From: an uncultured delta proteobacterium
GTDB taxonomy: Bacteria > Desulfobacterota > Binatia > UBA9968
DNA length: 40,367 bases
Reading direction: 5' to 3'
NCBI GenBank assembly: GCA_963804165.1
Contig: CAWDPO010000005.1
Span: 1 to 40,367, forward strand
The notes beneath the pieces are model-generated. The model was given only the letters and a program-made list of their open reading frames with translations, did no database searches and was not told the DNA's origin. This document shows, piece by piece, positions 1 to 37,698 of the stretch. Positions within the stretch are counted from its first letter, which is position 1; the number at the start of each line of letters is the position of its first letter. Position numbers and translations under genes: made by a program.

Positions 1-165
1 CAAAGAAGTCCCGCACCATCCGATAAAGTCCGCTCACCCACTGTAAGCTCTGATTCTCATAGTGTATAGTGTCCGGCATATTCCGATGTCGTCCATCTAA
101 AGCGGCCTAGTATGCGGGGCAGCTATGGGGGCAACAGTGGAGTATAGAAAGTGAGTTGCCCCCAC

Positions 166-372
166 ATGCCGCTAACAGACACTGCTACTCGCTCTGCGAA
201 GGCCCGCACCCAACCCTTCAAGTTGTTCGACGGCGGAGGACTTTATCTGGAAGTTAACCCTGCCGGTGGGAAGTGGTGGCGTTGGAAATATCGTTTTGGT
301 GGTAAGGAAAATCGTCTTTCGTTTGGTGTCTATCCTGATGTGAGCTTAAAAGCGGCTCGCGAAAAACGTGAA
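166..372 (+). pseudogene. 5' fragment of P4-type integrase (Arm DNA-binding/DUF4102 domain only)
   Basis: MPLTD...KLFDGGGLYLEV...GGKWWRWKYRFGGKENRLSFGVYPDVSLKAAREKRE is the typical P4-family arm-binding N-terminus. Similarity stops at ~372, where an oppositely oriented SBP fragment begins. Confidence 0.85.
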
Positions 373-1004
373 AGGCGCTCTCTAAACCTTTGGCGTCGGG
401 TTGAGTTTCGATCTCTTCCAATTTTAGCTTCAGTGCCAGAGTCGCAGGCCTCAGATCTTTCAATTGGAGCTCGTCTGCTATACCGCCTCCCGACAGCCGC
501 AGAAGTCCAACTCGGCCGAGCTTGGGAACTGCGTCCTTCAGTATCTCTAGCCTTTTGGTATTTAGCTCACCTAAACTTGACAAACCCGTGACATTGCCTC
601 CCGGCCGCGCCAGACTAGCAACCAGACCTGCTCCTACGGGGTCTCCGCCACTCGCCATCACGATGGGAATGGTAGTAGTCGCTTTCTTCGCCGCTAACGA
701 AGATGGCGTCCCTGATACCACGATCAGATCAACCTTAAGACGAACCAAGTCCGCCGCAAGCTCAGGTAGGCGCTCAGACTTTTGCTCCGCAAACCGGTAC
801 TCGAAAGCTATATTTTTCCTCGATCCAGCCGAGCTTACTCAGCTCGTGGCGGAACGCCTCCAAGAGGACCGCGCTACCGGAAGCGGTGCCACTCTCCAGG
901 TAACCTATGCGAAAGATTTTTCCTGCCTGCTGCGCTTCGACTGAACCGCAAAGCGCAAAGAGCATGGCGCATAGCAGGATTGATAAGACACGAGCTTTCT
1001 TCAT
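371..1004 (-). pseudogene. ABC_sub_bind-family substrate-binding protein, 3'-truncated and frameshifted (copy A)
   Basis: Signal peptide MKKARVLSILLCAMLFALCGSVEAQQ (ORF 774..1013) plus LVRLKVDLIV...[11 protein letters not shown]...KRLEILKDAVP (ORF 254..748). Ends at GLESAF, ~371. Confidence 0.85.
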
Positions 1005-1026
1005 TGCACACACACCATTCGGTATG

Positions 1027-1113
1027 TATCACGGCGGCATGAGCGGTAGTAGAGAAAAGTGAGATTTATGACGAACAGACGTTCATCGAGTGGGAGACCA
1101 AGTTTAGCCCTGA
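1027..1113. promoter_or_regulatory. Conserved ~88-bp leader between SBP start and palindromic doublet (copy 1 of 5)
   Basis: TATCACG...AAAAGTG-GATTTA...TTCATCGAG...TTTAGCC; homologous copies start at 8529, 12488, 20203 and 22534. Confidence 0.7.
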
Positions 1114-1181
1114 GATTGAGCTGAACGATGCTTCAGTTTGATCTAGCGCGAGATTGATTAGATGGAGAATTCAGTTCAATC
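1114..1181. repeat. Palindromic doublet element, copy 1
   Basis: GATTGAGCTGAA-CGATGC-TTCAGTTTGATC, 8 bp, GATTGATTAGAT-GGAGAA-TTCAGTTCAATC. Confidence 0.95.
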
Positions 1182-1185
1182 ACAG

Positions 1186-1285
1186 CGCTAACGTTCGCCG
1201 TCACGGGCCACCACCAAACCGTAGACCTTCACGTTCAGCGGGAACCGCCAGCGGGCGCCGGGCTCGTGCACGGCGTTGGTTAGCT
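1186..1285 (-). other. Integron-type attC site
   Basis: Minus strand AGCTAAC-CAACG-CCGTGCACG...CGTGACGG-CGAAC-GTTAGCG, with an extra base in L''. R'' (CAGCTAAC) is the exact complement of GTTAGCTG at 2564-2571, upstream of the gene. Confidence 0.85.
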
Positions 1286-1350
1286 GGTCTTCTCGTCCGT
1301 GCGGAGCAAAGAGGATCACAACCAAGTCGTCCGACAGCTCATGCCGGACA

Positions 1351-2518
1351 TCACAGCATAAATATCGGGATGTCCGGCTCCAGTCCAAACAACACCCGGC
1401 CGACGGTCTCCAGGACGCGGGGCTGGACGCCTATATGCTGGGTGACGGCGTGCACATCCCGAAAAGCGCGCTCAATCGAGGAGGTTGCGTAGAGCGAGGT
1501 CGCACCACCTGTGAGATAGATGAGGTCGACTGCCTGGACGGCGCTCGTTACCGCATGCCAGCTCGCCAACCGCACTTCTGCCCGACTCTGGACAATCGCG
1601 TCGCGTCCCGAGAGCACGTCATCCCACAGTCGATTGGCCGCGTCGAAGAGAAAGAGCCGTGCCGAACGCACTAAAGCTTCTGCCTGCGACAGCCGAGTTT
1701 GCGCGCCCCGATCTTCCCCCAGACTGGCGAGTCCGTTCATGACGCTTTTCCGCCGCCAGGTCGAGTAGTGTTTCGATCGCACTCCGCGCAATGCCGAGCG
1801 CGATCACACCGAGGCCGGGGCCGGCGCGCGAATGAGGAGGGATCTGGTACCGCGGCTCGGTCAACACGATTGGGTCTGTGTGGAACGACGCATAGCGGGC
1901 CGGTACGAAGCGATCCTCCACCACGACGTCGTGGCTCCCAGTGCCACGCAGTCCGCTGACCGTCCACGTATCGATGATGGTGCAATCGACAGCCGGGCAG
2001 AGCATAAACCGGAATTCCTGCGCCCCCGACGGTGTAAGTCGGGGCTTACCGTTCTCGTGGACGATGCACATGAGGATGAACCAAGAGCTGATCTGGCAGC
2101 CGCTCACCAGTGACCAGCGCCCGTTCACCCGGTAGCCACCATCGACGACCGTGGCCCGTCCCGTAGGGCGGGTGCTGTTCGCGAGGATCATATTCGGGTC
2201 CGCAAAGATCTCTTGTGCAACCTCTTTCGACAGCCGAGCAGTGGTCCAGTGGACGTTCCCGTTCCACACGCACCAAGCCACAGAGGCGTCCGCTCGCGCT
2301 AGCTCTTCATACACCTCCATCGCATCCATAGGGGTGAGATCGAGGCCGCCATAGGCAGCAGGTAAGAAGATGCGGAAGAACCCCGCTCGGGCCAGTTCCT
2401 GGGTGAGTTCCTCGGGCAACCTCCGGTCAGCCTCAAGGCGCTCACGCTCCGCCAGGATCCGCGACCGGAGCGCGCGAGCGGCTTCCAGTATCATAGTCGA
2501 TGCTCTGCTATTGGCCAC
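1351..2518 (-). CDS. Acyl-CoA dehydrogenase-family / HsaA-like flavin-dependent monooxygenase, one frameshift near 1730; gene cassette
   Basis: ORF 1619..2518 (LPAAYGG, GYRVNGRWSLVSG, DTWTVSGLRGTGSHD) and ORF 1351..1791 (GGATSLY...IERAFRDVHAVTQH). AAGGAG RBS before GTG 2518. Confidence 0.85.
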
Positions 2519-2564
2519 GGGCTTCTCCTTTCACGTAAGTATGCCTGCTTCGTCCCCCTTCGTC

Positions 2565-2658
2565 AGCTAACGTATAGCGTTTTATCCCTGGAGGTTAGAG
2601 GCAGTCAAGTTGGGTGGAGAGCGCGGAGTAACGCCAAAGGGATAAAACGAGGTTGGAC
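2565..2658 (-). other. attC-like hairpin at the downstream end of the recombinase/IS91 element
   Basis: Minus strand GTCCAAC (perfect RYYYAAC)...GTTAGCT, with an 11-bp inverted repeat CGTTTTATCCC (2578-2588)/GGGATAAAACG (2639-2649). Confidence 0.6.
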
Positions 2659-2902
2659 TAAACCGCGGAGCAGCCGTGAGACTTCGGCTATGGGGATTGT
2701 AACAGGATGCAGTGCCGCGGGGCTTGACACACTGTTAACGAAAGAAAGGCCCGAGGACTGCAGTCGAGATCGGCGCCGGTGGCGTTGCGCCGATTGCGAC
2801 ACTGCCATGCGACTTCAAAGTTAGTTTTGGCTACTGCCAGACACACCCGCGCGATGGCGGTGGATGGAAATTCACACGAGCTGAGATACAAAGGAATCTT
2901 TT

Positions 2903-4078
2903 TCATGAAGAATCCCAACGAGCTAAACTCAACGAAGCCGGCAGGTCGCCGACGGCAATCATCGTTCCCTCAAGACAAGACGGGCAGCGAGAAAGATCGA
3001 TGCCGGTGATTTTTAGCAGCAAGTTTTTAGCTGAGAGAATGGGGCTTTGAGGCACAGCGGGAGCAAGTTTCAAGAGTTTGCGGCATTGAGCGAGGGCTTG
3101 TTTCTTGGATCGGTTGGCCAAGAAGCCGAAGTGGCGGATGCGCATGAAGCCCTCGGGCAGGACATGAAGCAGGAAGCGACGGATAAATTCCTGGGCATCA
3201 AGGAGGAGGGTCTTTTTTTGATTCCCATCTTTTCGATCTCGGTAGCTCAAGGTGACCTCTGCGTTTTCGATTCTGAGGATGCGGTCATTGGACAGAGCCA
3301 CACGATGAGTGTAGCGGCCGAGGTAATCGAGGACAGTTTGTGGCGAGCCGAAAGGCTTTTTCGCGTAGACGATCCAGCTCGTTTTGCGCAATGCTTTGGT
3401 TTCCTTGTCGGCCGCAGGGAGTTTTCCTCTCTCACCGGCCTGCTGCAACAGAGTCAAAAACTTTCCACGAAACACCCGGCTTAAGGCCTTAACCGGAAAC
3501 AGAAAGTTTTCGCGCGCCGGTATCCAGCGGCTGTGATCGAAAGACAGAGCGCCTGCGGGTACCAGACAGTGCAGATGAAAATGATCTTTAAGGGTTTGAT
3601 CCCAGGTGTGCAGCACAGCAGTGATACCGATGGATCCCTTAAGACGTGTCTGGCCAAACTCCAATAAAGTTTTACTGACAGCTTTAAACAGCAAAGCCAA
3701 CACCAGCTTTTTATGGGTCAGAATCAGACCGTTAAGCTCATGCGGTAAGGTGAAGACCAGATGAAAGTATCCCACCGGCAAAAGCTCAGAGGTTTGCTTC
3801 TCCAACCACCGAGCCTTAGCCAAGGCTTGGCACTTGGGACAGTGGCGGTTACGACAGGAGTTATAAGCCGGGCGCTCAAAACCGCAAGACTCGCATCGAT
3901 CCAGATGCCCGCCCAATTCTGGAGTCCGGCACACCGAAACGGCCCGCATCACTTTCTGCTGGGAAGCCGAAAATCGATGCGTTCGTTGATATCGCTCCCC
4001 GTACTGACGAAAGACATCGGCCAGCTCGGGGCTTGCCTTTTTTTCTCCTGCCGCCCGCCCATCAGCGCGAGACAGCAC
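2903..4078 (-). CDS. IS91-family (Y2/HUH) transposase with N-terminal Zn-binding domain
   Basis: CRT..LGGH...C..C...YNSCRNRHCPKCQ; YFHLVFTLP; LHTW...HFHLHC (HUH); YLGRY (Y2); FIRRFLLHVLP.GF.RIRHFG. Confidence 0.95.
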   Translation of the reverse strand: MLSRADGRAAGEKKASPELADVFRQYGERYQRTHRFSASQQKVMRAVSVCRTPELGGHLDRCESCGFERPAYNSCRNRHCPKCQALAKARWLEKQTSELLPVGYFHLVFTLPHELNGLILTHKKLVLALLFKAVSKTLLEFGQTRLKGSIGITAVLHTWDQTLKDHFHLHCLVPAGALSFDHSRWIPARENFLFPVKALSRVFRGKFLTLLQQAGERGKLPAADKETKALRKTSWIVYAKKPFGSPQTVLDYLGRYTHRVALSNDRILRIENAEVTLSYRDRKDGNQKKTLLLDAQEFIRRFLLHVLPEGFMRIRHFGFLANRSKKQALAQCRKLLKLAPAVPQSPILSAKNLLLKITGIDLSRCPSCLEGTMIAVGDLPASLSLARWDSS

Positions 4079-4092
4079 CGTGAGACCGCTTC

Positions 4093-4929
4093 TTAGTTCG
4101 GCAGTCTCAGCAGATCCAAAGGATTGGCCGTGGTAGTGATCTTGTGCTGGCGAATCTGCAAGTAGCGCTCGGTGCTGGCCATCGAGTTATGACCCAATAG
4201 CGTCTGAATGGTCCTCAGATCCACCCCGGCTTCCAATAGATGGGTGGCAAAACAGTGTCTGAGCGTATGGATACCGTGGCCTTTTTGGATACCAGCCTTC
4301 AACTTGGCAAGATTGTAGATTCGCTGGGCGTAGTCGATTGATATCGGACCACCCTTTCGGTTGGGGAACAGGTAAATCGGCGAACGATGCTCTTTCCAAT
4401 AAGAGCGCAGCTCGGTGAGCAAACGGGCAGATAAGATCGTGTAGCGGTCTTTTCTACCCTTGCCCTGCTCCACCCGCACCATCATCCGTTCACTGTCGAT
4501 GGCGCTGACTTTGAGCCGAACCAATTCACTGACCCGCAGCCCCGTGGCGTAAGCCGTCATCAACAGACAACGGTCGCGCTGTTTTGCCGCGGCCAACAGC
4601 AAACGCTCGACTTCCTTCTGGCCTAACACTTCGGGCAGTTGCCAACTGCGCCTTCTCGGCGGAATAAACAACTGCTTGTCGTTCCAGCTCAACATCTGGT
4701 GGTAAAAGAACTTCATCCCCGAGATCGCCACGTTGCGCGAACTGGGCGACAAACCGCGCTTTTCCAGATGCAAAAGATAAGCGCGAATCTCCTCTTGTGT
4801 GAGTTGGTCCGGCGAGCGTCGATAATGCTTGACCAGTCCGATCACGGCCGCCAGATAGGACTGCTGGGTGCGGGGCGAGAAGTTTCTCAACCTCATCTCC
4901 TCGATCATCCTTGTGCGTAACGCTCCCAT
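4093..4929 (-). CDS. Tyrosine recombinase (IntI-related, no obvious integron-specific insertion)
   Basis: SAM-like N-terminus (MRLRNFSPRTQQSY); YATGLRVSE; QGKGRKDR; HTLRHCFATHLLE; LLGH...T.RY catalytic residues; 278 aa. Confidence 0.95.
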   Translation of the reverse strand: MGALRTRMIEEMRLRNFSPRTQQSYLAAVIGLVKHYRRSPDQLTQEEIRAYLLHLEKRGLSPSSRNVAISGMKFFYHQMLSWNDKQLFIPPRRRSWQLPEVLGQKEVERLLLAAAKQRDRCLLMTAYATGLRVSELVRLKVSAIDSERMMVRVEQGKGRKDRYTILSARLLTELRSYWKEHRSPIYLFPNRKGGPISIDYAQRIYNLAKLKAGIQKGHGIHTLRHCFATHLLEAGVDLRTIQTLLGHNSMASTERYLQIRQHKITTTANPLDLLRLPN

Positions 4930-5306
4930 AACAAATCCTCCTTGGATTTAAATTTGGGAGCGACGCTATCACGCGAGATAAAAAATGGACGCTGAGTTCG
5001 AGCTATGAAAACTACGAAGAGATGAGGGGAGAACCTGAGGGGAACAGAAACACACCGCACGGCATCCGCCACCGCGCAGCGGTTTAGTTCAACTACCGAG
5101 TATACTGACCAGTGTATAGGATAATTTAAAATCCCGGCCAAAGGAATTTACTCGTTCTTTCAATCAGTTGTCAATTACGACACCTCTCAAGAACCACAAT
5201 ACACTGGTCAGTGTATTACCAATATACGTGCTAGCGCTAACGAGGGTTTTTCACGCTTGCCGGTGGCGCACTTGGTTTCATCGTTTTTTGGAAATGTGTT
5301 TCTTGA

Positions 5307-5374
5307 GATTGAACTGAACGACGCTTCAGTTTGGTTGCTGAGAAGATTGAGTTGATGGAGAATTCAGTTCAATC
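5307..5374. repeat. Palindromic doublet element, copy 2
   Basis: GATTGAACTGAA-CGACGC-TTCAGTTTGGTT, 8 bp, GATTGAGTTGAT-GGAGAA-TTCAGTTCAATC, followed by CTGGCATCGC. Confidence 0.95.
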
Positions 5375-5391
5375 CTGGCATCGCTGCGTGG

Positions 5392-6377
5392 TTACTTAAT
5401 CACCTTATCCGCTCTCGCGAGCACATTCGGTGGAATCGTTAGCCCAATCCGCTTTGAGTCTTCAAATTGATCACGAACTCAAACTTGCTCGATTGCTCGA
5501 CCGGAATGTCCGCGGGTTTGGCGCCTTTGAGAATCTTGTCGACCATCACCGCCACGCGCTTGAAGGGCTCAACCTCGTCCGCACCGTAGGACATCAAGCC
5601 GCCGTTCTGAACAAAGTCTTCGCGATAGTGAATCGTGGGTAGTTGGTACTTAGCCGCTAGCGCGATGATCCGTTCTTGATTCTCGGTGCTCTGAGATAGA
5701 CGATGCCGTGTTACGGTGAGACCAATGTTGCCCTTCTTGGCGGCCTCTTTGAAAGCGCTCTCAAAGTTGTCCGTGTTGATCTCCATGGAGTGGAGTTGCA
5801 GCCCAAGTTGCCGTGCCACAAGTTGGCTTTCTGTCCACTGTGGCTCACTGCCCTCAAACTTTGGGTACCACAACACGGCGACGCGGGTGAGTTTTGGTAT
5901 GGCCTCCTTAAGTACCTGCAGTCTTTTGCCAGCTAAAACATCGGCCATGGAGTAAAATCTCGTGATGTTGCCTCCGGGCCGCGCCAAGCTGTCAACCATG
6001 CCGCGCGCAACCGGATCGGTGTTGGAATCCGTAAAAATGATGGGAATCGCTTTGGTAGCCTTCTTGGCGGTCAGGCCATCGTTTGGACCACCCGCGATGA
6101 TAAGATCGACCTTGAGACGAACCAGCTCATCGGCCAGGGCGGAGAGCCGCTCGGGTTTCTCTTCCGCGTTGCGAAGCTCGAAAACGATGTTTTTACCCTC
6201 GACATAACCAAGATTGCGGAGCTCTCGTCGTAGCGCGTCTTGGCCAAATCTGGAGCTAGATAGTCCCCCGGACAATCTTCCGACGCGATAGACTTTTTCT
6301 GTCTGCTGCGCCCTCGCAGAAGAAACAGTCATCAGAAATGAAGTAGCCAGTAGCAGGAGCGAGATCGGCGCATTCAT
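5392..6377 (-). CDS. ABC_sub_bind-family SBP (copy B), frameshift near C-terminus
   Basis: ORF 5439..6377 has the family motifs ([38 protein letters not shown]). The tail [14 protein letters not shown] is in another frame and ends at 5392. Confidence 0.85.
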
Positions 6378-7911: not shown

Positions 7912-8617
7912 GAATAGTCAACTTTAGTGCATGCGCGTCGGCTGGGAGAAGCTCTTTTACCTCGTGTAAACTGGGCGGATCGGCCGGATCGTAGAGAACC
8001 GCGACACGGGAAAGTTTGGGAACGGCTTCTTTGAGCAGCTCCAGCCGCTTCCCGCCCAGTTCCCTGGCAAGGGCTGTGAGGCCGGTGACATTGCCGCCGG
8101 GACGAGCAAGGCTTTCAACGAAGCCTGCCCTAACAGGATCGGACCCAACGCCCACCATGACGATGGGAATCGTCTTGGTTGCATTCTTGGCCGCCCGGAT
8201 CCCGGGTCCCCTGACGCTACCACGATGATATCAACCTTCAGACGCACAAGCTCCGCCGCATGCTCAGGGGCCCGATCGACCTTCCCCTCCGCATATCGGT
8301 ACTCGATGGCGATGTTCTGTCCTTCTATGTAGCCAAGCTCGCGCAGAGCTAGCCGAATTCCCTCGGCGCGGGCGGAGTCAGTAGCCGGGTCGGTATTGGA
8401 TAGATACCCTAACCGAGAGACTTTCTTCGGCTGCTGCGCCTGAGCCGTCACTCCAACAGCAAGCAGCATCACTACAAGCAGGATTGATAAGACACTAACT
8501 TTCTTCATTGCACACACAATTCGTTATGTATCACGTGGGGCCGTGTAGAGGAAACTGAGATTTATGACGGAAGGCGACAGGTATTCGTCGAGTGGAAAAA
8601 CTAGATTTTTAGCGTGA

Positions 8618-8685
8618 GATTTAACTGAACGACGCTTCAGTTTGGTTGCTGAGAAGATTGAGTTGATGGAGAATTCAATTCAATT
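8618..8685. repeat. Palindromic doublet element, copy 3
   Basis: GATTTAACTGAA-CGACGC-TTCAGTTTGGTT...GATTGAGTTGAT-GGAGAA-TTCAATTCAATT; interior identical to copy 2. Confidence 0.95.
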
Positions 8686-8696
8686 TCAGGGTTAAC

Positions 8697-11206: not shown

Positions 11207-12246
11207 TTATTTGATCACTTTATCCGCCCTCGCCAGCACGTTCGGCGGAATTGTCAGCCCGATCTGCTTCGCCGCTTTCAAATTGATGATGAACTCGAAC
11301 TTTGTCGGCTGCTCAACCGGCAGCTCCGCGGGCTTGGTTCCTTTGAGTATTTTGTCCACATAACCGGCGGCGCGATGATTCAGGTCCGTAAAGCTGACAC
11401 CGTAACTCATTAGCCCCCGTCTTTTACCCATTCAGGTGAGTAGTATATCGCTGGATGTCGGCCCTTGATTGCGAGATTAACGATCTGTTTTCGGTGAGAA
11501 TTGAGAACGAAGCTCTGCAGCAGTAGAACTGCGTCGGCACTTTCCCTGCTCGCGGCTCGGAACGCCGGCTCGATATCCTGCGGGCCCAACGTGTCTAGGT
11601 ATTGAATCCGCACTCCGAAGGCCGCCGCGGCGAGTTCGGTTTCTTTTAACGATTGCGCGTTGCCCGGATAGTTCGAAGTGCCGAGTGTGGCTACCCGGGA
11701 GAACTTAGGGACACTCTCCTTTAGAAGCTCCAACCGTTTTCCGCTTATCTCAGGGGCCAGCGTGGACAGTCCAGTGACGTTGCCGCCAGGCCGTGCCAGG
11801 CTGGCGACGAACCCACTGCCTACAGGATCGCTATCCTGAACCATCACAATCGGAATCGTGCTCGTCGCTTCCCTGGCGGCACGGGTTGATGCGGCACCGG
11901 CCGTCACGATGACGTCTACTTTGAGACTAACGAGCTCGGACGCAAGAGCTGGGTACCGTTCGGATTTGCCCTCTGCCGCCCGGTAGTCAAGGACGATGTT
12001 TTTCCCCTGCACGTATCCGAGCTCGCGCAGCCCCTGTAGAAATGCTTCGATGCGATCCGCATTCACAGTCAGGGAGGAACCCGCGAGATATCCGAGTCGA
12101 AAGGTTTTGGTTTTTGGTTGCGCCCGGGCGGGAGCCGCAGTTGTCAGCAAGAAAGTTGCCAGTAAACAGACTAAGGTCTTTCCACTCATCGTTTTCGCTC
12201 CCACTTTTCTGCTGCCAACTGACGACTGATCACTGACAACTCTCAT
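11207..12246 (-). CDS. ABC_sub_bind-family SBP (copy E), frameshift near 11415
   Basis: ORFs 11410..12246 and 11207..11431 join at GG/LMSYG. Confidence 0.88.
12212..12241. repeat. Degenerate heptamer tandem repeat
   Basis: CTGCCAA CTGACGA CTGATCA CTGACAA. Confidence 0.7.
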
Positions 12247-12490: not shown

Positions 12491-12576
12491 CACGGATACG
12501 GAAACGGAGAAAAGTGTTATTTTACGGCAGAAGGAAAACAGATTCATCGAGGGGAAAAAGGTTGATTTCGACGTAG

Positions 12577-12643
12577 GATTGAACTGAACGACGCTTCAAT
12601 AAAGTATCAGTAGGATGGAGTTGAAGGAGAATTCAATTCAATC
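12577..12643. repeat. Palindromic doublet element, copy 5
   Basis: GATTGAACTGAA-CGACGC-TTCAAT...GATGGAGTTGAA-GGAGAA-TTCAATTCAATC-CTGGCATTGCCGC. Confidence 0.93.
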
Positions 12644-12669
12644 CTGGCATTGCCGCTTTGCTCTTTTGC

Positions 12670-13198: not shown

Positions 13199-14872
13199 TC
13201 ACCGCCTACGCGCGTGTATCATCTCCACTGCGTCAAAGTACTTCGGTTCGCTGCGTACGATGTCAAAGCCCGTATCGACGAGCCACTCTTTGTACTGTTC
13301 CAGCGAGTAACGTCTCGCGATGGTTCTTTCAATGGCGCGGTTGACGGATACGAGCCTGTCATAGTGCTCGCGGCAACTCTCGAACTTTGCCTTCGAGACA
13401 AGATCGTCCCTGATGCCCTCCAACAGCGAATCGAGATTCGTCTTAGAATGAGTTGTCGATAGCGTGAAAACTCCGCCTCTTCTCAACGCTTCGGCTACTT
13501 TCCTGAAGCATCCCGGCGGATCGTCCAACGCATAAGCGACATTCACCGCAACCACAGCGTCGAAGTCATTTTGGCCGTCGAATTCCGTGTTCTCCACCGA
13601 TTCCATCAGGAGCGTCAAATTCTTGTTCGATCCCAGGCGCTTCTCCGCCATCTTCTCCAGCATGAACGGATTGTTCTCGACCGCCAAGACCTGGTAATTG
13701 CGTAGCAGCAGTTTCTCCGTAACGTTTCCTGTGCCGGCTCCCAGCTCGAGGACCCGGGTTGCCCGTGCCGGAATACCGCTTATGACATCCTGGATCAGAT
13801 CTTCATAGGGCTTGAAGCCTCTCAGCAGCGCATCGTAAGAGACGGCGTAAAGGCCCCACATCCGGTCTTCAGAAAGCCGCTCTTCCAAGTCCCTCTGGAA
13901 TAGTTTCCAATCAAATTTCTTTGGCAAAAGCGCCACTGACCAAGCTTTCAGATTGGCGTCCGCGTCCGTCAGCTGGGTTGCCACTTTTATGAATTCCATT
14001 TTGCCGTAGTCCGGCGACTCGTAGACCAGCGGTTCCAGGTCAACCAGCGGGAGGTGGCCCTCTTTTACCTTTTCTGTAAATTCTCTGGCGTGCTCGAAAA
14101 CTTCAGTCTGATTGGCCAATTCGATAATAAAGTTGTTGACGTGTCGACGGCGAATCGCGGGCAGAATCCGCCTGAATATCACCTCAAATGCAACATTCCA
14201 GGCAACTACTGCCAAATGCGTGTCCAGGAAATAAGTCGGAGTCGTATATCTCGGCGCCTGGTACATCACCGAACGGAGATCGCGCAGTCGGCTGATTTGG
14301 TCCTCAGCGTTCAGCGGCGGCCGACCGGCGTCTATAACATTCTGATTCTGTTGATACTGACGCTTGAATTGATCGAAATCTCCCTCATAGGACTCGAGTG
14401 GATTAAGATTGTAGAGCAGTTGCTGATACCGGAATTCGAAGTCAATCGTTCCATCTGCCGCGGTCTTACCCGAGTCTTCGACAAGGCTGAACGGCAGCCC
14501 CTGGATGACCGCAAAGCGTCTCGGCAGATCGTATTTCGTATGAATGACGGGAAGAATTTTGCCCTTCGATCCATTCGGATCTTGTGTCTGCAGAATATTG
14601 GCTTCAAAGCGGGGCCACTCATTATCAAAGTACTCCGGAGACCACACCAGGATAACTTTCTTGGTGCGATCAATATATTCGGCCAGCACGTCGATCCAGG
14701 TCTTGCCGATGAATCGCGGCATCTCCCAATCATCGAAGAAGACATGATACCCGTTATCGCGGAGCCGCCGCGCCAGCGCGCGAGTCCAGTCCTTTTGTGC
14801 GGAATTGTAGCTTAGAAAAACATCGTATCTGACAGCTCTGTTCTCCATCGCAATCGCAGCTTGTGGCGCCAT
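13199..14872 (-). CDS. TIR domain + PAS/MmyB-like domain + class I SAM methyltransferase fusion
   Basis: YDVFLSY...VFFDDW...VILVWSPEY...WPRFE (TIR with the conserved Glu); PTYFLD...VVAWNVAF (PAS-like); VLELGAGTG...FDAVVAVN...LRRGG (MTase); GAGG RBS. Confidence 0.85.
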   Translation of the reverse strand: MAPQAAIAMENRAVRYDVFLSYNSAQKDWTRALARRLRDNGYHVFFDDWEMPRFIGKTWIDVLAEYIDRTKKVILVWSPEYFDNEWPRFEANILQTQDPNGSKGKILPVIHTKYDLPRRFAVIQGLPFSLVEDSGKTAADGTIDFEFRYQQLLYNLNPLESYEGDFDQFKRQYQQNQNVIDAGRPPLNAEDQISRLRDLRSVMYQAPRYTTPTYFLDTHLAVVAWNVAFEVIFRRILPAIRRRHVNNFIIELANQTEVFEHAREFTEKVKEGHLPLVDLEPLVYESPDYGKMEFIKVATQLTDADANLKAWSVALLPKKFDWKLFQRDLEERLSEDRMWGLYAVSYDALLRGFKPYEDLIQDVISGIPARATRVLELGAGTGNVTEKLLLRNYQVLAVENNPFMLEKMAEKRLGSNKNLTLLMESVENTEFDGQNDFDAVVAVNVAYALDDPPGCFRKVAEALRRGGVFTLSTTHSKTNLDSLLEGIRDDLVSKAKFESCREHYDRLVSVNRAIERTIARRYSLEQYKEWLVDTGFDIVRSEPKYFDAVEMIHARRR

Positions 14873-16265: not shown

Positions 16266-17057
16266 GGCAACTCCCTTCATACGAGGGAAACAAATCCAGG
16301 TTTTGTCTTTTTTCGCTCGATTTTGACAAAGAGCAAAGAAAATGCCACCGCAAGTCATTATTGCACATGGAAGGCCTATGGTCCGATTGCGTCAAGATGT
16401 ATTCTTGCAGATTTATCGCAAAAACGTGGTCTTACGAATCTTACTTGATAGCCGTTATGGATGGAAAAGAATCGACCGAAGTCAGCATCATTGAAAAGTT
16501 CTTATTCTCGAAATCGGGTGCCGTTGTAAACGAAGTATTCTTTCGTTGACACTATTGTAGCCAAAGTATTCATTCGAACCGGTCGGACCAGCATAAGTAT
16601 CCAGGCCCCAAGGTTGCACGAATCGCCTGCCTTAGTACCGGAGCGAATTCTCACACAACGAAACCGTCCCCATCGTTCCAGGATGTTGGATCGCTACGGT
16701 CATTCAAATCATGTGCTGAAACAAAATGTGGATCTTCAAAATTCAGGAATTCTCGATTTCTTGACGCATGTTAGCCTGCTGTGGTTTTAGCTGCATGCCC
16801 TTTATTGGGCTTGTGCTTGCCCCCTTCTGCAGAGCGTCCACTAGTGGGCACTCCCTGCCGTGTACTAGAAGAGACAAAGGCACTCAAATCGAATTTAACC
16901 GCACGAGGATTGTTAATCCTCGTAGCGCGTCTAACTCCTAGAGAAACACATGACAATTTTTTCACTTTGCCATTACTTTGCCACAACCAAATCGCTATGG
17001 CAGAATGACTCTAACGATTCGCAGGTTATCTCCAACAGACCACCGTAAAACCGTTAG

Positions 17058-17125
17058 GATTTAACTGAACGACACTTCAACGTTATGTGTCGCGAGATTG
17101 CATTGATGGAGAATTCAATTCAATC
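17058..17125. repeat. Palindromic doublet element, copy 6
   Basis: GATTTAACTGAA-CGACAC-TTCAAC...GATTGCATTGAT-GGAGAA-TTCAATTCAATC-CTAGCATCGC. Confidence 0.93.
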
Positions 17126-17152
17126 CTAGCATCGCGGCTTCGCTTTCTTTGT

Positions 17153-20177: not shown

Positions 20178-20291
20178 TGCGCACCTCGTTTCGAGCGTTA
20201 TCTATCACGCGGATAGAGATAAAAGAAAGTGTGATTTACACGGCGGAAGGACAGGTATTCGTCGAGTGAACGAACCAGATTTTTAGCCTGA

Positions 20292-20357
20292 GATTGAACT
20301 GAACGACGCTACAGTCCAATCTCGTAGGATTGAATCGTAGGAGAATACAATTCAATC
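20292..20357. repeat. Palindromic doublet element, copy 7
   Basis: GATTGAACTGAA-CGACGC-TACAGTCCAATC, 6 bp, GATTGAATCGTA-GGAGAA-TACAATTCAATC. Confidence 0.93.
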
Positions 20358-20363
20358 CTAGCG

Positions 20364-21339
20364 TTATTTGATCACCTTATCCGCTCTCACCAGCACGTTC
20401 GGCGGAATCGCTAGGCCGATTTGCTTCGCGGCTTTAAGGTTGATGATAAATTCAAACATCTTTGGTTGCTCAACGGGAATATCGGCCGGCTTCGTGCCTT
20501 TCAAGATTTTGTCGACAAAAACGGCTACGCGCTTGTAGCGTTCGGTGCGGTCGGCTCCATAGGACATCAAACCGCCGCTGACAACGAAACTTCCCTGGAC
20601 GTAAATCGCCGGCAGCCGATTTTTTGCCGCCAGCTCGACAATCCGTTCTTGATTCGACGCCCCTAACGGAGTCGAGCACGCGGCAAGAGCAGCGCTGCTC
20701 GCTTTTACCGCCTCTTTGAACGCGTTCTCATATCTGTCGGCACTGCGCACCGCCATGGAATGAAGCTGTAGCCCAAGGTTCAGGGCTGCGGTCTGCGTCT
20801 CTTTCCATTCCTGCGCGGAGCTTGGATTCTGCGGATCCCACAGGACCGCAACACGAAGCAGTTTCGGAACGGTTTCCTTGAGCAGCTCCAGCCGTTTGCC
20901 CGCCAACGCGGTTTCGACGCTGGTGAACCCCGTGATGTTTCCGCCGGGCCGCGCCAAGCTGTCAACCAGCCCCGTCGCAACCGGGTCGGTCACGTCTGTG
21001 AAAACGATGGGAATAGTCTGAGTGGCTTTTTTTAGAGCCAGGGCGCCGGGAGTTCCGGGCGTTACCAGTACGTCAACCTTGAGACGAACCAGCTCCTCGG
21101 CTAGGGCAGGAAGCTGGTCGAGCTTGTCATCCGCGAATCGATATTCAAAGGCTATGTTCTTTCCTTCAACGTAGCCAAGATCGCGGAGCATACTGACGAT
21201 AGTCTCTTGGCCGATGTTTGAAGCGCCGCGGGCTGAGAGCCAGCCGATCTTCGATACCCTGGTTTGCCGCTGCGCCTCGGCGGGCTCGAACGAGACGAGA
21301 ACCAAAGCCGTGAGCAGCCCAAGGACTTTTCTATTTCAT
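20364..21339 (-). CDS. ABC_sub_bind-family SBP (copy L)
   Basis: ORF 20364..21305. Removing one A after ATG 21339 gives the signal peptide MNRKVLGLLTALVLVSFEPAEAQ. Confidence 0.88.
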
Positions 21340-21533
21340 AGCCGTTGCCTCTTTACAGCAACGGATATGCCATAAGCCGGAGCTAATGAAAACGATAATT
21401 TTGCCAGCGCAGGAAACGGGAAGAGTCGCAATTCGACTACAGGGCGTAGCAGATTTGATTCGCTTGCGGACGGATGAAGCGACGGAAGGCGACCCACAGT
21501 CGGTAGCCGGATTAGATCAAGTTTTTTCGCCAG

Positions 21534-21563
21534 GATTGAACTGAACGACGCTTCAGTTCGATT
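21534..21563. repeat. Single palindrome unit (CGACGC type), copy 8
   Basis: GATTGAACTGAA-CGACGC-TTCAGTTCGATT. Confidence 0.93.
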
Positions 21564-21596
21564 ACGTGGGACACTTCACATAAAAAGTGCCACGGC

Positions 21597-22435
21597 TTAC
21601 TGCGCTGGCTTTGTCCCGACGGCAAATAAGGCGCGACTCACTTTATGAAAGCCACCTTCCTGTTTCAGCATCTGCAATTTTCTAAACACTTCACTCTTTG
21701 CTTGTTCGAGCGTTCCGGTGTCATTTTCTCCAATTGCCGCCGTATTCCAGCCGACCAGAGAGACAACCAAAACTCCTCCTCACATGTATAGATAAAATCG
21801 TTTTCTTCGACGGTAATGCGGATGTGTTCGAAACCGGCTTGTTGTAACGCGGTTTCTATCTGTAACGGCGTGTCAAACCTAACATCGATTTTCGCAGAAA
21901 AATCCTTTGCCGCGGGCGTCGACACAAAGGGGCGAAGCACTTCATGACACCAAGTTTGATACGGATTATCAGCGGCCCAAGTGCTGAGAGCTACCCGCCC
22001 TCCGCGCCTGAGCACACGGTAAAACTCCTGGAGAACGCACGCGGGTTCAGCGAACATCCAAAGGGCAAAGCCGCACATAACCCAATCGAACGGCGCATCC
22101 GGTAGATTCATTTGTTCAGCGTCCATATGACGGATTTCAGCGTGGCTTAGTTTTCGACTCTCGATGTCTTTAGCTGTTTCGCGTACCATGTCCGGAGAAA
22201 AGTCGATAGCGGTAACATGGCCAGTCGGTCCGACCTTTGCGGCCGCTGGAAACAACAACGCGCCTCTCCCAGCCGCTACGTCGAGCACTTTATCGCCCGA
22301 ATCCAGGTCGGCAAGATCGACCAAGCATTGACCGAAATAAGAGAAAATTTGTGGACCGATCCGGTCATAGATTGTGGCAGCCTGGCTGAACACTCGCAGG
22401 CTTTCTTCCCGCTTCTCAATACCTTTGTCAGTCAT
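21597..22435 (-). CDS. Class I SAM-dependent methyltransferase (UbiE-like), probable frameshift near C-terminus
   Basis: VLDVAAGRG, AIDFSPDM, MDAEQMNLPDAPFD, RVLRRGGR. ORF ends at 21665; an alternative-frame tail GGFHKVSRALFAVGTKPAQ* ends at 21597. Confidence 0.85.
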
Positions 22436-22620
22436 TACTACGTCCTTGCCACAGAAACAAAAGCAACAACCCGATTTTGTTGTTGCGGAGTAGCACTTAA
22501 TGATAAGGGCATATCCCAGGCCTTGAAGCTACTTATCATGAACAGAGAAGCTGACAAAAGTGTTATTTACAACAGAGGGGCAACCAGATTCGCGAGGGGG
22601 AAAAGGTAAAATCGGCCTGG

Positions 22621-22650
22621 GATTGAACTGAAGGAGAATTCAGTTCAATC
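22621..22650. repeat. Single perfect palindrome unit, copy 9
   Basis: GATTGAACTGAA-GGAGAA-TTCAGTTCAATC, with the leader on the left and CTGGCATCGC on the right. Confidence 0.96.
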
Positions 22651-22666
22651 CTGGCATCGCAGATAC

Positions 22667-33983: not shown

Positions 33984-37698
<3,715 letters not shown>

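Follow-up and report, generated by a model that had tools for sequence, protein, structure and literature searches.

Does a tyrosine recombinase riding beside an IS91-family transposase, in a unit bounded by motifs that resemble integron core sites, make an insertion sequence behave like a gene cassette? The question is raised by a stretch of 40,367 nucleotides from an uncultured delta proteobacterium (hereafter, the window), in which a unit on the minus strand couples a gene for a tyrosine recombinase with one for an IS91-family Y2/HUH transposase, and also shows an inverted repeat matching at 17/20 positions and a 12-bp hairpin whose stem is perfect. Read along that strand, GTTGAAC at 5093 comes first, followed by GTCCAAC (2652-2658), the hairpin and GTTAGCT (2571-2565). 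The original prediction took GTTGAAC and GTCCAAC as the two termini of the unit, and assigned GTTAGCT, after the hairpin, to the neighbouring oxidoreductase cassette as its first core site.

The limits of the unit were drawn by comparison with other copies, in this genome and in others: homology begins at 5093 and stops at about 2567-2572, the flanks beyond being unrelated, and the contig cover of the element in four soil runs drops outside about 2569-5107. GTTGAAC does mark the start. GTCCAAC is present where it had been seen, yet it is not the end of the unit, for the element runs on to CTATAC at 2572. The hairpin followed by GTTAGCT exists too, but it does not belong to the site of a neighbouring cassette, because the homology reaches CTATAC and the flanks differ past the following GTT; the hairpin is intra-element, and no match to a classical attC was found in the window. 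The features are as follows.

5094..5243, minus strand: hairpin element of about 130-150 nt ('class A'), directly adjoining the insertion sequence on its left side, with 17-nt arms at 5101-5117 and 5199-5215.
2572..5093, minus strand: complete insertion sequence as delimited under the IS91 convention, from GTTGAAC... to ...CTATAC, 2,522 bp.
5069..5093, minus strand: left, terIS-like end from aligned ends, comprising GTTG, the left arm of the inverted repeat and the small palindrome ACCGC-TGC-GCGGT (5071-5083); the motif is also present in ISAzo26, and the layout agrees with that given for the terIS of IS801 and IS1294 (PMC13181058).
4093..4929, minus strand: tyrosine recombinase, 278 aa (Pfam Phage_integrase, 1.4e-39; Phage_int_SAM_4, 5.2e-19).
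2903..4078, minus strand: tnpA, IS91-family Y2/HUH transposase, 391 aa, GTG start (Pfam Y2_Tnp, 5.3e-56; Zn_Tnp_IS91, 6.4e-33).
2652..2671, minus strand: right arm of the inverted repeat (...GCTCCGCGGTTTAGTCCAAC), internal to the element and the first of the ori-region palindromes; every full copy has it, and so do the solo right ends.
2578..2649, minus strand: oriIS hairpin, a perfect 12-bp stem (arms 2578-2589 and 2638-2649, 100%) with a 48-nt loop.
2572..2577, minus strand: terminal CTATAC of the ori end, where conservation stops and the flanks begin to differ.
2565..2571, minus strand: target-derived heptamer GTTAGCT, outside the element, whose positions 4-7 differ among copies and follow GTT-A/G-G-G/A-C (88 junctions).

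Units related to class A, with the same terminal hairpin and a 6-7-nt spacer, precede the insertion sequence in other genomes. A BLAST of the element against the window returned only the element itself; an open reading frame of 278 aa at 11410-12246, considered as a second copy of the recombinase, was rejected, as it encodes an ABC substrate-binding protein.

The transposase leaves little doubt as to the family. TnpA scores 439 bits against the IS91 equivalog model NF033538 (cut-off 125), its translation shows the HFHLH and YLGRY motifs (HUH and two tyrosines), and it combines the Y2/HUH core with the N-terminal zinc-binding domain by which the IS91 family is recognised; its dN/dS ranges from 0.15 to 0.21. 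The recombinase gene lies immediately upstream, 14 nt from tnpA, and both are comprised within the conserved ends, which is the arrangement that defines the ISAzo26 subgroup. In ISAzo26 itself, on plasmid 2 of Aromatoleum aromaticum EbN1 (NC_006824.1, about 95.2-97.8 kb), where the annotation reads recombinase and 'IS91-like element ISAzo26 family transposase', the same two genes stand in the same order with the recombinase directly upstream, its product being 46.8% identical to that of the window. The left end, GTTGGACTAAACCGC plus a small palindrome, is like that of the window element, and the two share the AATCCCCATAGCC motif and an internal inverted arm (...CAGTCCAAC) followed by a hairpin before the right end. 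ISAzo26 differs in its phylum and host replicon, in a longer hairpin and in its terminus, ..CTCTGC^ATTA (one copy; the caret marks a junction). ISfinder lists several ISAzo26-like members. The gene pair is thus already catalogued, in ISAzo26 and its relatives, and the segment 2572-5093 (minus) belongs to an already known ISAzo26-type subgroup of IS91.

The ends, too, can be read against the family. According to PMC13181058, the oriIS of IS91 lies downstream of tnpA, adjoins the target tetranucleotide and carries two subterminal palindromes; the ter end has one palindrome, beside a GTTN cleavage tetranucleotide; and in IS91 and IS801 the ter palindrome is repeated within the ori region. Judged from the layout, the window element conforms: GTTG and a small palindrome on the left, upstream of tnpA, and on the right, downstream of it, two palindromes abutting the target GTT. 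The original prediction had opposed the inverted repeat to the ori/ter ends of classical IS91 elements, an opposition which dissolves, as the element has ori and ter ends of IS91 type and the supposed terminal inverted repeat is the ter palindrome repeated in the ori region. The repeat (2652-2671 / 5074-5093) spans 20 nt at 85% (17/20), its first 15 positions giving the 14/15 previously noticed, and its right arm is internal, 80 nt short of the true right end. A 17/20 repeat alone is not rare in 3 kb, further pairs of similar quality having been listed; what shows it to be real is its conservation, since every full copy carries it, whether in this genome or elsewhere, as does ISAzo26. At loci L025 and L027, TA-to-GG changes affect both arms. 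The left end is 96% conserved among copies whose interiors are 73-78% identical, and conservation of the hairpin, on which the original prediction had staked itself, holds across 14 aligned ends from several subfamilies, with 11/11 stem pairs kept and three of them showing compensatory changes.

This genome harbours four intact and several decayed copies, and at 10/10 of its TnpA-encoding places the recombinase gene sits beside the transposase; an IS91 element free of the recombinase, which could have served for comparison of ends and targets, was not found in it. The left-end motif occurs in 27/90 genomes of the family (13/23 genera). The pairing and order of the genes persist, as do the motifs of both ends, from Binatia to Nitrospirota, Verrucomicrobiota, Kiritimatiellota and Betaproteobacteria, with proteins 43-47% identical, and internally deleted derivatives of about 451, 513 and 535 bp retain both ends. 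In reads, related sequence was met only in Logan contigs of soil metagenomes, at a share of 0.21 or less. Neither a joint between the two ends nor a tandem copy appeared in the assembled contigs of four runs, which are short pieces and say nothing on circles.

One might suppose that the recombinase is an unrelated passenger gained by one-ended transposition, the likeness of the GTT and hairpin motifs to cassettes being due to chance. IS91-family elements do carry neighbouring DNA when termination fails (PMC13181058), but the conservation of the pair and of both ends from Binatia to Betaproteobacteria is hard to reconcile with such an accident, as are the single clade formed by the IS-borne recombinases (81/97), the purifying selection acting on the gene (dN/dS 0.05-0.27) and a bias of the flanks towards GTTRRRY that goes far beyond chance (see below). 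The passenger explanation, already disfavoured, is therefore very improbable.

The reading that best joins these observations, to which I assign a probability of roughly 0.6, is that of an intact ISAzo26-type IS91 copy, moved by TnpA in rolling-circle fashion, with the recombinase in an accessory role. TnpA would nick at CTATAC^GTT, next to the conserved hairpin of the right end (oriIS), rolling-circle synthesis would displace the strand antisense to the genes, and TnpA would terminate at the left GTTG and its small palindrome to yield a single-stranded circle; the copy would then be inserted immediately 5' of a GTT with no target duplication, the recombinase possibly helping in end or target recognition or in circle processing. 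That the chemistry is of rolling-circle type, and which strand is displaced, are assumed here from membership of the family. In IS91, TnpA alone suffices for transposition and no target duplication arises, according to PMC13181058. The same source describes IS91, IS801 and IS1294 as sharing with the window element a Y2/HUH transposase, an ori end located downstream of tnpA at a tetranucleotide with T in second position (GTTC or CTTG), a ter palindrome next to a GTTC-type cleavage site and the lack of target duplication; upstream of its transposase, IS91 has the accessory orf121, a non-enzyme of 121 aa, at the place where the window element has its recombinase. IS91, IS801 and IS1294 differ in having no tyrosine recombinase and a target of four bases, against seven here.

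The seven-base target emerges from 88 independent right junctions. The right flank starts with GTT in 80/88 of them and with GTTRRRY in 51/88, the background of GTTRRRY being 4.9%; the commonest heptamers are GTTAGGC (22), GTTAGAC (10) and GTTGGGC (8). The preference spans seven bases, GTT-A/G-G-G/A-C (GTTRRRY type), and includes the R' cores of classical attC, all three heptamers being such cores beside true IntI genes in two genomes of the same genus. In this and other genomes the left junctions read flank^GTTGAAC... and the right ones ...CTATAC^GTTN, a specific tetranucleotide with T second at the ori end, as in IS91; the two flanks share nothing past the GTT that also opens the element, hence no target duplication, and the sequences would suit cleavage on the 5' side of GTT as well as at G^TT. 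Nearly all boundaries of other copies fall at GTT/AAC motifs, and the targets have the GTT core that the original prediction invoked, some copies standing at attC R' in attC arrays. For the window's own insertion, no empty site was recovered, its 372-nt right flank being unmatched in 30 genomes of the same genus. Full-text literature searches returned no paper describing the target preference of this subgroup. The sole related item was a one-line remark, in PMC9229058, that the IS91-like element ISShvi3 adjoins an attC in a Shewanella integron.

As the seven-base preference equals the integron core consensus, it fits an integron-like tyrosine recombinase at least as well as it does an HUH enzyme. 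An alternative possibility, then, is that of a self-mobilising cassette, in which TnpA only makes the single-stranded circle and the element's own integron-like recombinase joins the folded ends to a GTTRRRY core. The inverted-repeat arms and the ori hairpin would pair to give an R box, an asymmetric spacer and an L-like stem; crossover with a double-stranded target, for instance attC R', would take place at G^TT, and replication would resolve the product as in integron cassettes and CTX phage. This alternative is doubtful, though to be taken seriously, and the evidence is divided. In its favour, besides the logo of the targets, their identity with attC R' cores and the position of ISShvi3, is the predicted fold of the joined ends, which resembles a bottom-strand attC: a two-tier hairpin made of a 15-bp stem between the arms and the 12-bp hairpin, the circle-junction fold reaching -27.8 kcal/mol against -17.4 +/- 2.9 for shuffles. 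The right end shows the box order of an attC (GTCCAAC, stem, loop, stem, CTATAC, GTTAGCT), with an RYYYAAC-like box, a stem, a loop, the stem again, a 6-nt spacer and GTT; GTTAGCT departs from GTTRRRY at one position, the ori stem has no bulge, and the spacers are uneven (1-2 vs 6 nt). Pairing with the internal arm does not explain the target, position 4 being A in 64/88 junctions where pairing would want G; and recombinase-free IS91 elements show the same junction geometry (PMC13181058).

The recombinase itself points both ways. Its catalytic residues R132, K157, H221, R224, H247 and Y256 are invariant across 11 IS-borne homologues and two IntI, the R-K-H-R-H-Y set being common to all tyrosine recombinases. 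Since all of them are kept across phyla and the gene is under purifying selection, the protein is probably active in cutting and joining DNA and not just a DNA binder; it appears from these features to be a conserved, catalytically competent accessory. In a published classification, the 'integron-like' group takes in the recombinases of IS91 elements, and that of the window falls in this subgroup (10.1101/542381), in agreement with the suggested relatedness of IS91-linked recombinases to integron integrases. Against the IntI model TIGR02249 the recombinase gets 164 bits (cut-off 265), split over two separate stretches, a fit no better than to the Xer models (XerA, 198 vs 220; XerD, 172 vs 330; XerC, 172 vs 335), and it scores under every NCBIfam cut-off. 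The IntI-specific insertion (I2 region), which reads the extrahelical bases of a folded attC, takes up 41 columns in two IntI from relatives and is absent from all 11 IS-borne proteins; in an alignment with VchIntIA (2a3v), residues 176-205 of the recombinase face chain residues 179-251. In a small tree, which does not settle the link to Xer, the IS-borne recombinases form their own clade, apart from IntI. In the literature on IS91 elements and integrons looked through, no description of the role of such a recombinase was found.

Insertions at attC sites also bear on the matter. At loci L021, L258 and L259 (3/34 left flanks) the insertion sequence stands in a classical attC exactly at spacer^GTT (R'), in cassette orientation, and the insertion points coincide with the IntI crossover position. 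L021 is a five-site array, with attC-like sites at 1229, 2237, 3285, 6499 and 7664; the one at 3285 hosts the element, which is oriented like a cassette. The background is 0.0093 sites per kb, with at least three sites in 0/1,036 windows of 5.3 kb. Most insertions, however, are outside classical attC, and the crude attC test is weak (3/34 left flanks vs 13/400 controls). An attC in reverse orientation, sought as an inverted partner heptamer plus hairpin, was seen in 0/88 right flanks (7/600 in controls), while a perfect-stem hairpin 3-9 nt before the left junction gave a weak signal (mean 5.3 vs 4.7; stems of at least 7 in 5/34 vs 40/600).

Host IntI might instead move the element as a passive cassette, the right end (GTCCAAC, hairpin, CTATAC, GTT...) serving as an attC recombined into attC or attI. 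True IntI genes are indeed encoded in 9/41 related genomes (a count that takes in one unpublished genome, G005), and the three insertion points just mentioned would suit the enzyme; yet in this genome, 81% complete, no IntI was found at cut-off (best match 105 bits) despite the four intact and several decayed copies. About 26/29 left flanks of the GTTGAAC type are not scan-positive for classical attC, the element also resides on Pseudomonadota plasmids such as that of EbN1, outside integrons, and its perfect ori stem is devoid of the bulged bases typical of attC. Passive mobilisation by IntI is accordingly improbable.

Taken beside integron cassettes, the window unit has the GTTRRRY core at the insertion point in common with them, and differs by its 2.5 kb with enzymes of its own, its perfect stem and asymmetric spacer (6 vs 1-2 nt), and the lack of attI and Pc. 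The IS1111-attC group and the group IIC-attC introns are alike in being mobile elements that home to attC in cassette arrays (PMC9229058). A further analogy, CTX-type phages and XerCD (IMEX), is named in PMC9345347. Those phages employ host Xer proteins and the dif site, and are not insertion sequences. Their HUH Rep makes single-stranded DNA, the folded hairpin is recombined by tyrosine recombinases and replication completes integration. As for the IS1111-attC elements and the group IIC-attC introns, their enzymes (a DEDD transposase, and a reverse transcriptase with a ribozyme) are unrelated, and they occupy another position and orientation in the attC.

A sister subfamily inserts only into a palindromic repeat of about 80 nt, which forms co-oriented arrays in this contig; filled and unfilled repeats show a clean insertion with no duplication. 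The repeat has a 7-bp box, an unpaired spacer of 5 nt and an inner stem, its arms look like the IS ends, and its profile found none near IntI in four 20-kb stretches from two relatives. While the gene pair was known, the seven-base GTTRRRY target, the insertion at attC R' cores and a sister lineage that targets only a palindromic repeat found in arrays are new.

Between strand transfer by TnpA with a helper recombinase and integration made by the recombinase, the former is somewhat more likely. A bolder proposal, which I put forward as a speculative one, is that ISAzo26-type IS91 elements are self-propelled integron-like cassettes, combining an HUH-made single strand, a paired-end mimic of attC and an I2-less, IntI-related recombinase of their own inserting at GTTRRRY; on that proposal, the head-to-tail stacking of elements and miniature derivatives, and their entry into attC arrays, would follow. 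By extension, the repeats of about 80 nt might be attC-like sites of a second class, on which the recombinase of the sister subfamily acts; if so, there would be an integron-like cassette system in which an insertion sequence carries the integrase.

To sum up, if the recombinase does the joining, rolling-circle transposons would be linked mechanistically, and perhaps evolutionarily, to integrons, and insertion sequences would have a way into cassette arrays, which they could disrupt or extend. Otherwise, target recognition in the IS91 family is still extended from four to seven bases.

The ISAzo26-type element spans 2,522 bp by the IS91 convention (window 2572-5093) and carries two intact genes on the minus strand, read from 5093 to 2572 and separated by 14 nt:

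4929-4093, minus strand: tyrosine recombinase gene, 278 aa (Phage_integrase, 1.4e-39, and an N-terminal SAM-like domain)
4078-2903, minus strand: transposase gene (tnpA), 391 aa (IS91 zinc-binding and Y2 transposase domains)

The transposase scores 439 bits against the NCBI IS91 equivalog model (cut-off 125), and its translation shows an HUH motif (HFHLH) and a two-tyrosine motif (YLGRY). The original prediction regarded the gene pair as packaged like an integron cassette, and the features it named are all present: GTTGAAC at 5093, GTCCAAC at 2658-2652, GTTAGCT at 2571-2565, a hairpin that is perfect over 12 bp (2578-2589 with 2638-2649), and an inverted repeat agreeing at 14 of its first 15 positions and 17/20 overall, whose right arm is internal, 80 nt from the element end. 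The assignment of hairpin and GTTAGCT to the core site of an adjacent cassette does not hold: homology among all copies starts exactly at GTTGAAC and ends in AAAACGCTATAC, GTT coming next, and since the flanks differ beyond this point, the hairpin belongs to the element and GTTAGCT to the flanking DNA.

The host assembly (7.5 Mb, 81% complete, the window being its whole contig C5) holds two other full copies, 84% and 76% identical, along with truncated copies, one right end on its own and a family that is more distant. Contig C41 (1-5300, against window 1-5400) repeats the first 5 kb of the window at 97% identity, with the element at the same site and shared flanks. Many 1-nt indels break the genes there, and rather than a separate insertion this copy probably reflects a second strain or redundancy in the assembly. 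Two truncated copies, at loci L004 (contig C37) and L006 (contig C9), break within tnpA at about element position 1443-1457, with other mobile DNA next to them; past the break, L004 encodes an IS5-like transposase end (identified by eye).

Right junctions, at the ori end downstream of tnpA, were gathered from the window, the host genome, named genomes and one metagenome scan (120 matching stretches, 80 of them retrieved). An internal arm was required within 135 nt, armless matches, several of them chance 16-mers, being discarded, and the merging of identical 25-nt flanks left 88 junctions.

Bases of the right flank (counts out of 88 junctions)
Positions 1-3: GTT 80
Position 4: A 64, G 13, C 10
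Position 5: G 71, T 14
Position 6: G 51, A 24, C 12
Position 7: C 60, T 19

RRRY stands at positions 4-7 in 51/88, against a background of 4.9% after GTT in the host genome, the top heptamers being GTTAGGC (22), GTTAGAC (10) and GTTGGGC (8); the predicted tie of the boundaries to GTT core motifs is borne out by nearly all copies. The heptamer is target rather than element, because its bases vary among copies and it also occurs at element-free neighbouring array sites. True IntI genes (>440 bits) are encoded by 9/41 relatives, a count that takes in one unpublished genome (G005), and none was found in the 81% complete host assembly. Beside IntI in two relatives, a simple scan detects classical attC sites with the R' cores GTTAGAC, GTTGGGC and GTTAGGC; the same type of scan finds none in the window, which speaks against the cassette context proposed there. 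Reverse-orientation attC sites occur in 0/88 right flanks.

Classes of the 35 distinct left flanks (assigned by reading aligned output)
Class A, about 13 flanks (one, L227, from an unpublished genome): hairpin unit of ~130 nt whose end is a short TATAC..GTATA stem followed by 6-7 nt; in the window, 5094-5243, the element's own left flank
Class B, 6 flanks: ~200-nt unit ending in CACTTAATA
Class C, 6 flanks: ~80-nt palindromic repeat
Class D, 3 flanks: scan-positive classical attC (the scan is positive in 13/400 controls), with the element exactly between spacer and GTT
Class D?, 2 flanks (L214, L231): attC-like by eye only
Unclassified, 5 flanks

At locus L021 the element lies in cassette orientation between attC-like sites at 1229, 2237, 3285, 6499 and 7664, of which the one at 3285 is the host site, and L258 and L259 each have a host site and one neighbouring attC-like site. 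The background of such sites is 0.0093 per kb (2.79 Mb of host genome), and 0/1,036 windows of 5.3 kb in that genome contain three or more. A free copy of the class B unit elsewhere is directly followed by GTTGACC. The hairpin unit at 5094-5243, whose 17-nt arms are separated by 81 nt, lies directly against the left end and starts near GTTAGCG. Other genomes have related units in front of the element, and the unit may be either a structured target or a miniature element of IS91 type. GTTGAAC, the left end of the element, is a good target in its own right, so small relatives may have inserted there to give the class A and B units, or the other way round.

The recombinase falls below all curated cut-offs (198 bits against 220 for XerA, 172 against 330 for XerD, 164 against 265 for IntI), and recombinases of IS91 elements are classed, in a published survey (10.1101/542381), in an 'integron-like' subgroup without the IntI insertion. 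In an alignment of 11 IS-borne proteins with two true IntI from relatives, R132, K157, H221, R224, H247 and Y256 are invariant and a 41-column insertion is confined to the IntI rows, so that the IntI-like I2 helix for which a check had been proposed finds no counterpart; against VchIntIA (2a3v) the match is split, 30 residues standing opposite 73. A tree of 19 rows puts the 12 IS-borne proteins in a single clade (81/97) and IntI in another (100/99); it does not resolve the branching relative to Xer-like proteins, and its outgroup branches are long. Compared with other copies, the recombinase gene has a dN/dS of 0.05-0.27 and tnpA one of 0.15-0.21, and a recombinase is present at 10/10 IS91-transposase places in the host genome. 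On account of its residues, dN/dS, linkage, missing insertion and place in the tree, the recombinase is not an IntI and is a maintained, probably catalytic component of the element.

The hairpin is conserved: in 14 right ends from several subfamilies all 11/11 pairs of the core stem (CG-TTTTATCC-C with G-GGATAAAA-CG) are kept, 3 of the 11 with compensatory changes, and in distant members the internal arm of the inverted repeat has changed in step with the left arm. When the ends are joined as in a circle, both strands are predicted to fold into a 15-bp arm-arm stem plus a 12-bp hairpin (bottom strand -27.8 kcal/mol vs -17.4 +/- 2.9 for shuffles, z = -3.6). At locus L018 (2627-2674) the final ~23 nt of the ori end (..GGGATAAAACGCTATAC) are tandemly duplicated with GTT after each copy, a duplication that may have been left by re-initiation, or by cleavage of the ori junction more than once.

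All junctions agree equally well with two readings: either the HUH enzyme cuts 5' of GTT, in the manner of IS91, or a tyrosine recombinase makes a crossover between G and TT, in the manner of integrons. Whether a copy has the first G or not, at the one junction or the other, does not separate the two. Integration by the recombinase, which I consider less likely, is supported by the 7-base integron-type core at the target, by homing to attC R' sites, by joined ends that fold much as an attC does and by the catalytic residues being conserved as a set. Membership of the IS91 family, the same geometry in recombinase-free IS91 members and a recombinase devoid of the IntI insertion support integration by the HUH enzyme only, which I favour at a probability of roughly 0.6 and in which TnpA would cut 5' of GTT as in IS91. 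No empty site for the window's own insertion was obtained from 30 same-genus genomes, nor any circle junction or tandem copy from the assembled contigs of four soil runs, which says nothing about circles.

A sister family, with left end GTTGGAC or ATTGGAC, resides in the host genome and at least five others and was seen only within the ~80-nt palindromic repeat, between GCGTC and GTTCAGTTCAATCC or, in the other arm, between GGAGA and ATTCAGTTCAATCC; the unfilled form comes from 38 near-full uninterrupted repeats. The repeat has 77 profile matches in the host genome, with co-oriented arrays on at least 7 contigs, and recurs in the window:

1107-1190, 5302-5380, 8611-8690, 12569-12655, 17055-17135 and 20285-20365: ~80-nt repeats
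near 21530 and 22610: half-sites of the repeat

Most of these directly follow the 3' end of a minus-strand gene, among them genes for ABC substrate-binding paralogues and a cupin. Single copies fold with an outer stem of 13 bp and an inner stem that varies, leaving CGACGC / GGAGAA unpaired; a consensus fold over the whole alignment gave no structure. With its paired box, unpaired spacer of 5 nt and variable stem inside, the repeat is attC-like in geometry, and its arms resemble the IS ends; it was not found near IntI in the two relatives checked. Among other genomes of the genus, one has the repeat in abundance and four have few copies. At 21530-22660, two half-repeats (covering 6-49 and 36-86 of the profile) stand on either side of a 1-kb segment with a methyltransferase gene (21665-22435), which looks as if DNA had been inserted mid-repeat; similar half-site pairs exist on other contigs.

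Elsewhere in the window, an acyl-CoA dehydrogenase-like ORF with N-terminal and middle domains only (1619-2518, region 1351-2518) adjoins the element, and an overlapping same-strand ORF (1351-1791) suggests a frameshift or sequencing error. Inside the repeat-bounded region, a 557-aa ORF (13199-14872) combines a TIR domain (5.5e-21) with a SAM methyltransferase domain; its neighbour is a GNAT/FeeM-like gene, and the ORF may have a part in defence or signalling. At the contig edge (151-748), two gene fragments overlap on opposite strands: the N-terminal part of an Arm-DNA-binding integrase on the plus strand (151-591) and part of an ABC substrate-binding gene on the other (254-748). Pyruvate:ferredoxin oxidoreductase (34005-37698) is split into overlapping ORFs, 34005-34784 and 34711-37698, probably by a frameshift or assembly error.

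In the published plan of IS91, IS801 and IS1294 (PMC13181058), the ter end precedes the genes and has a single palindrome next to the GTTN tetranucleotide at which cleavage occurs, the ori end lies downstream of tnpA with two palindromes abutting the target tetranucleotide (T second), target duplication is absent, and IS91 itself has an accessory ORF upstream of tnpA; the layout of the element matches this plan. A named relative, ISAzo26 on plasmid 2 of Aromatoleum aromaticum EbN1, has the identical two-gene design, RefSeq annotating a 'tyrosine-type recombinase/integrase' immediately 5' of the 'IS91-like element ISAzo26 family transposase', and its ends share the motifs (GTTGGACTAAACCGC plus palindrome, AATCCCCATAGCC, an internal arm ...CAGTCCAAC and the hairpin). 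Recombinase homologues are common: 7,985/8,000 scored candidates from a protein collection are significant, the best 120, mostly from 1-5-kb contigs, are at least 84% identical, and 431 plasmid records contain one. The 21 named-genome loci range from Binatia and Syntrophobacteraceae to Nitrospirota, Verrucomicrobiota, Kiritimatiellota and Burkholderiaceae, and the left-end motif occurs in 27/90 genomes (unpublished G005, G059 and G076 included) and 13/23 genera of the host's family. With layout, gene pair and ends matching, and homologues this common, the element is a further member of an already known group, the IS91 family elements of ISAzo26-like two-gene design.
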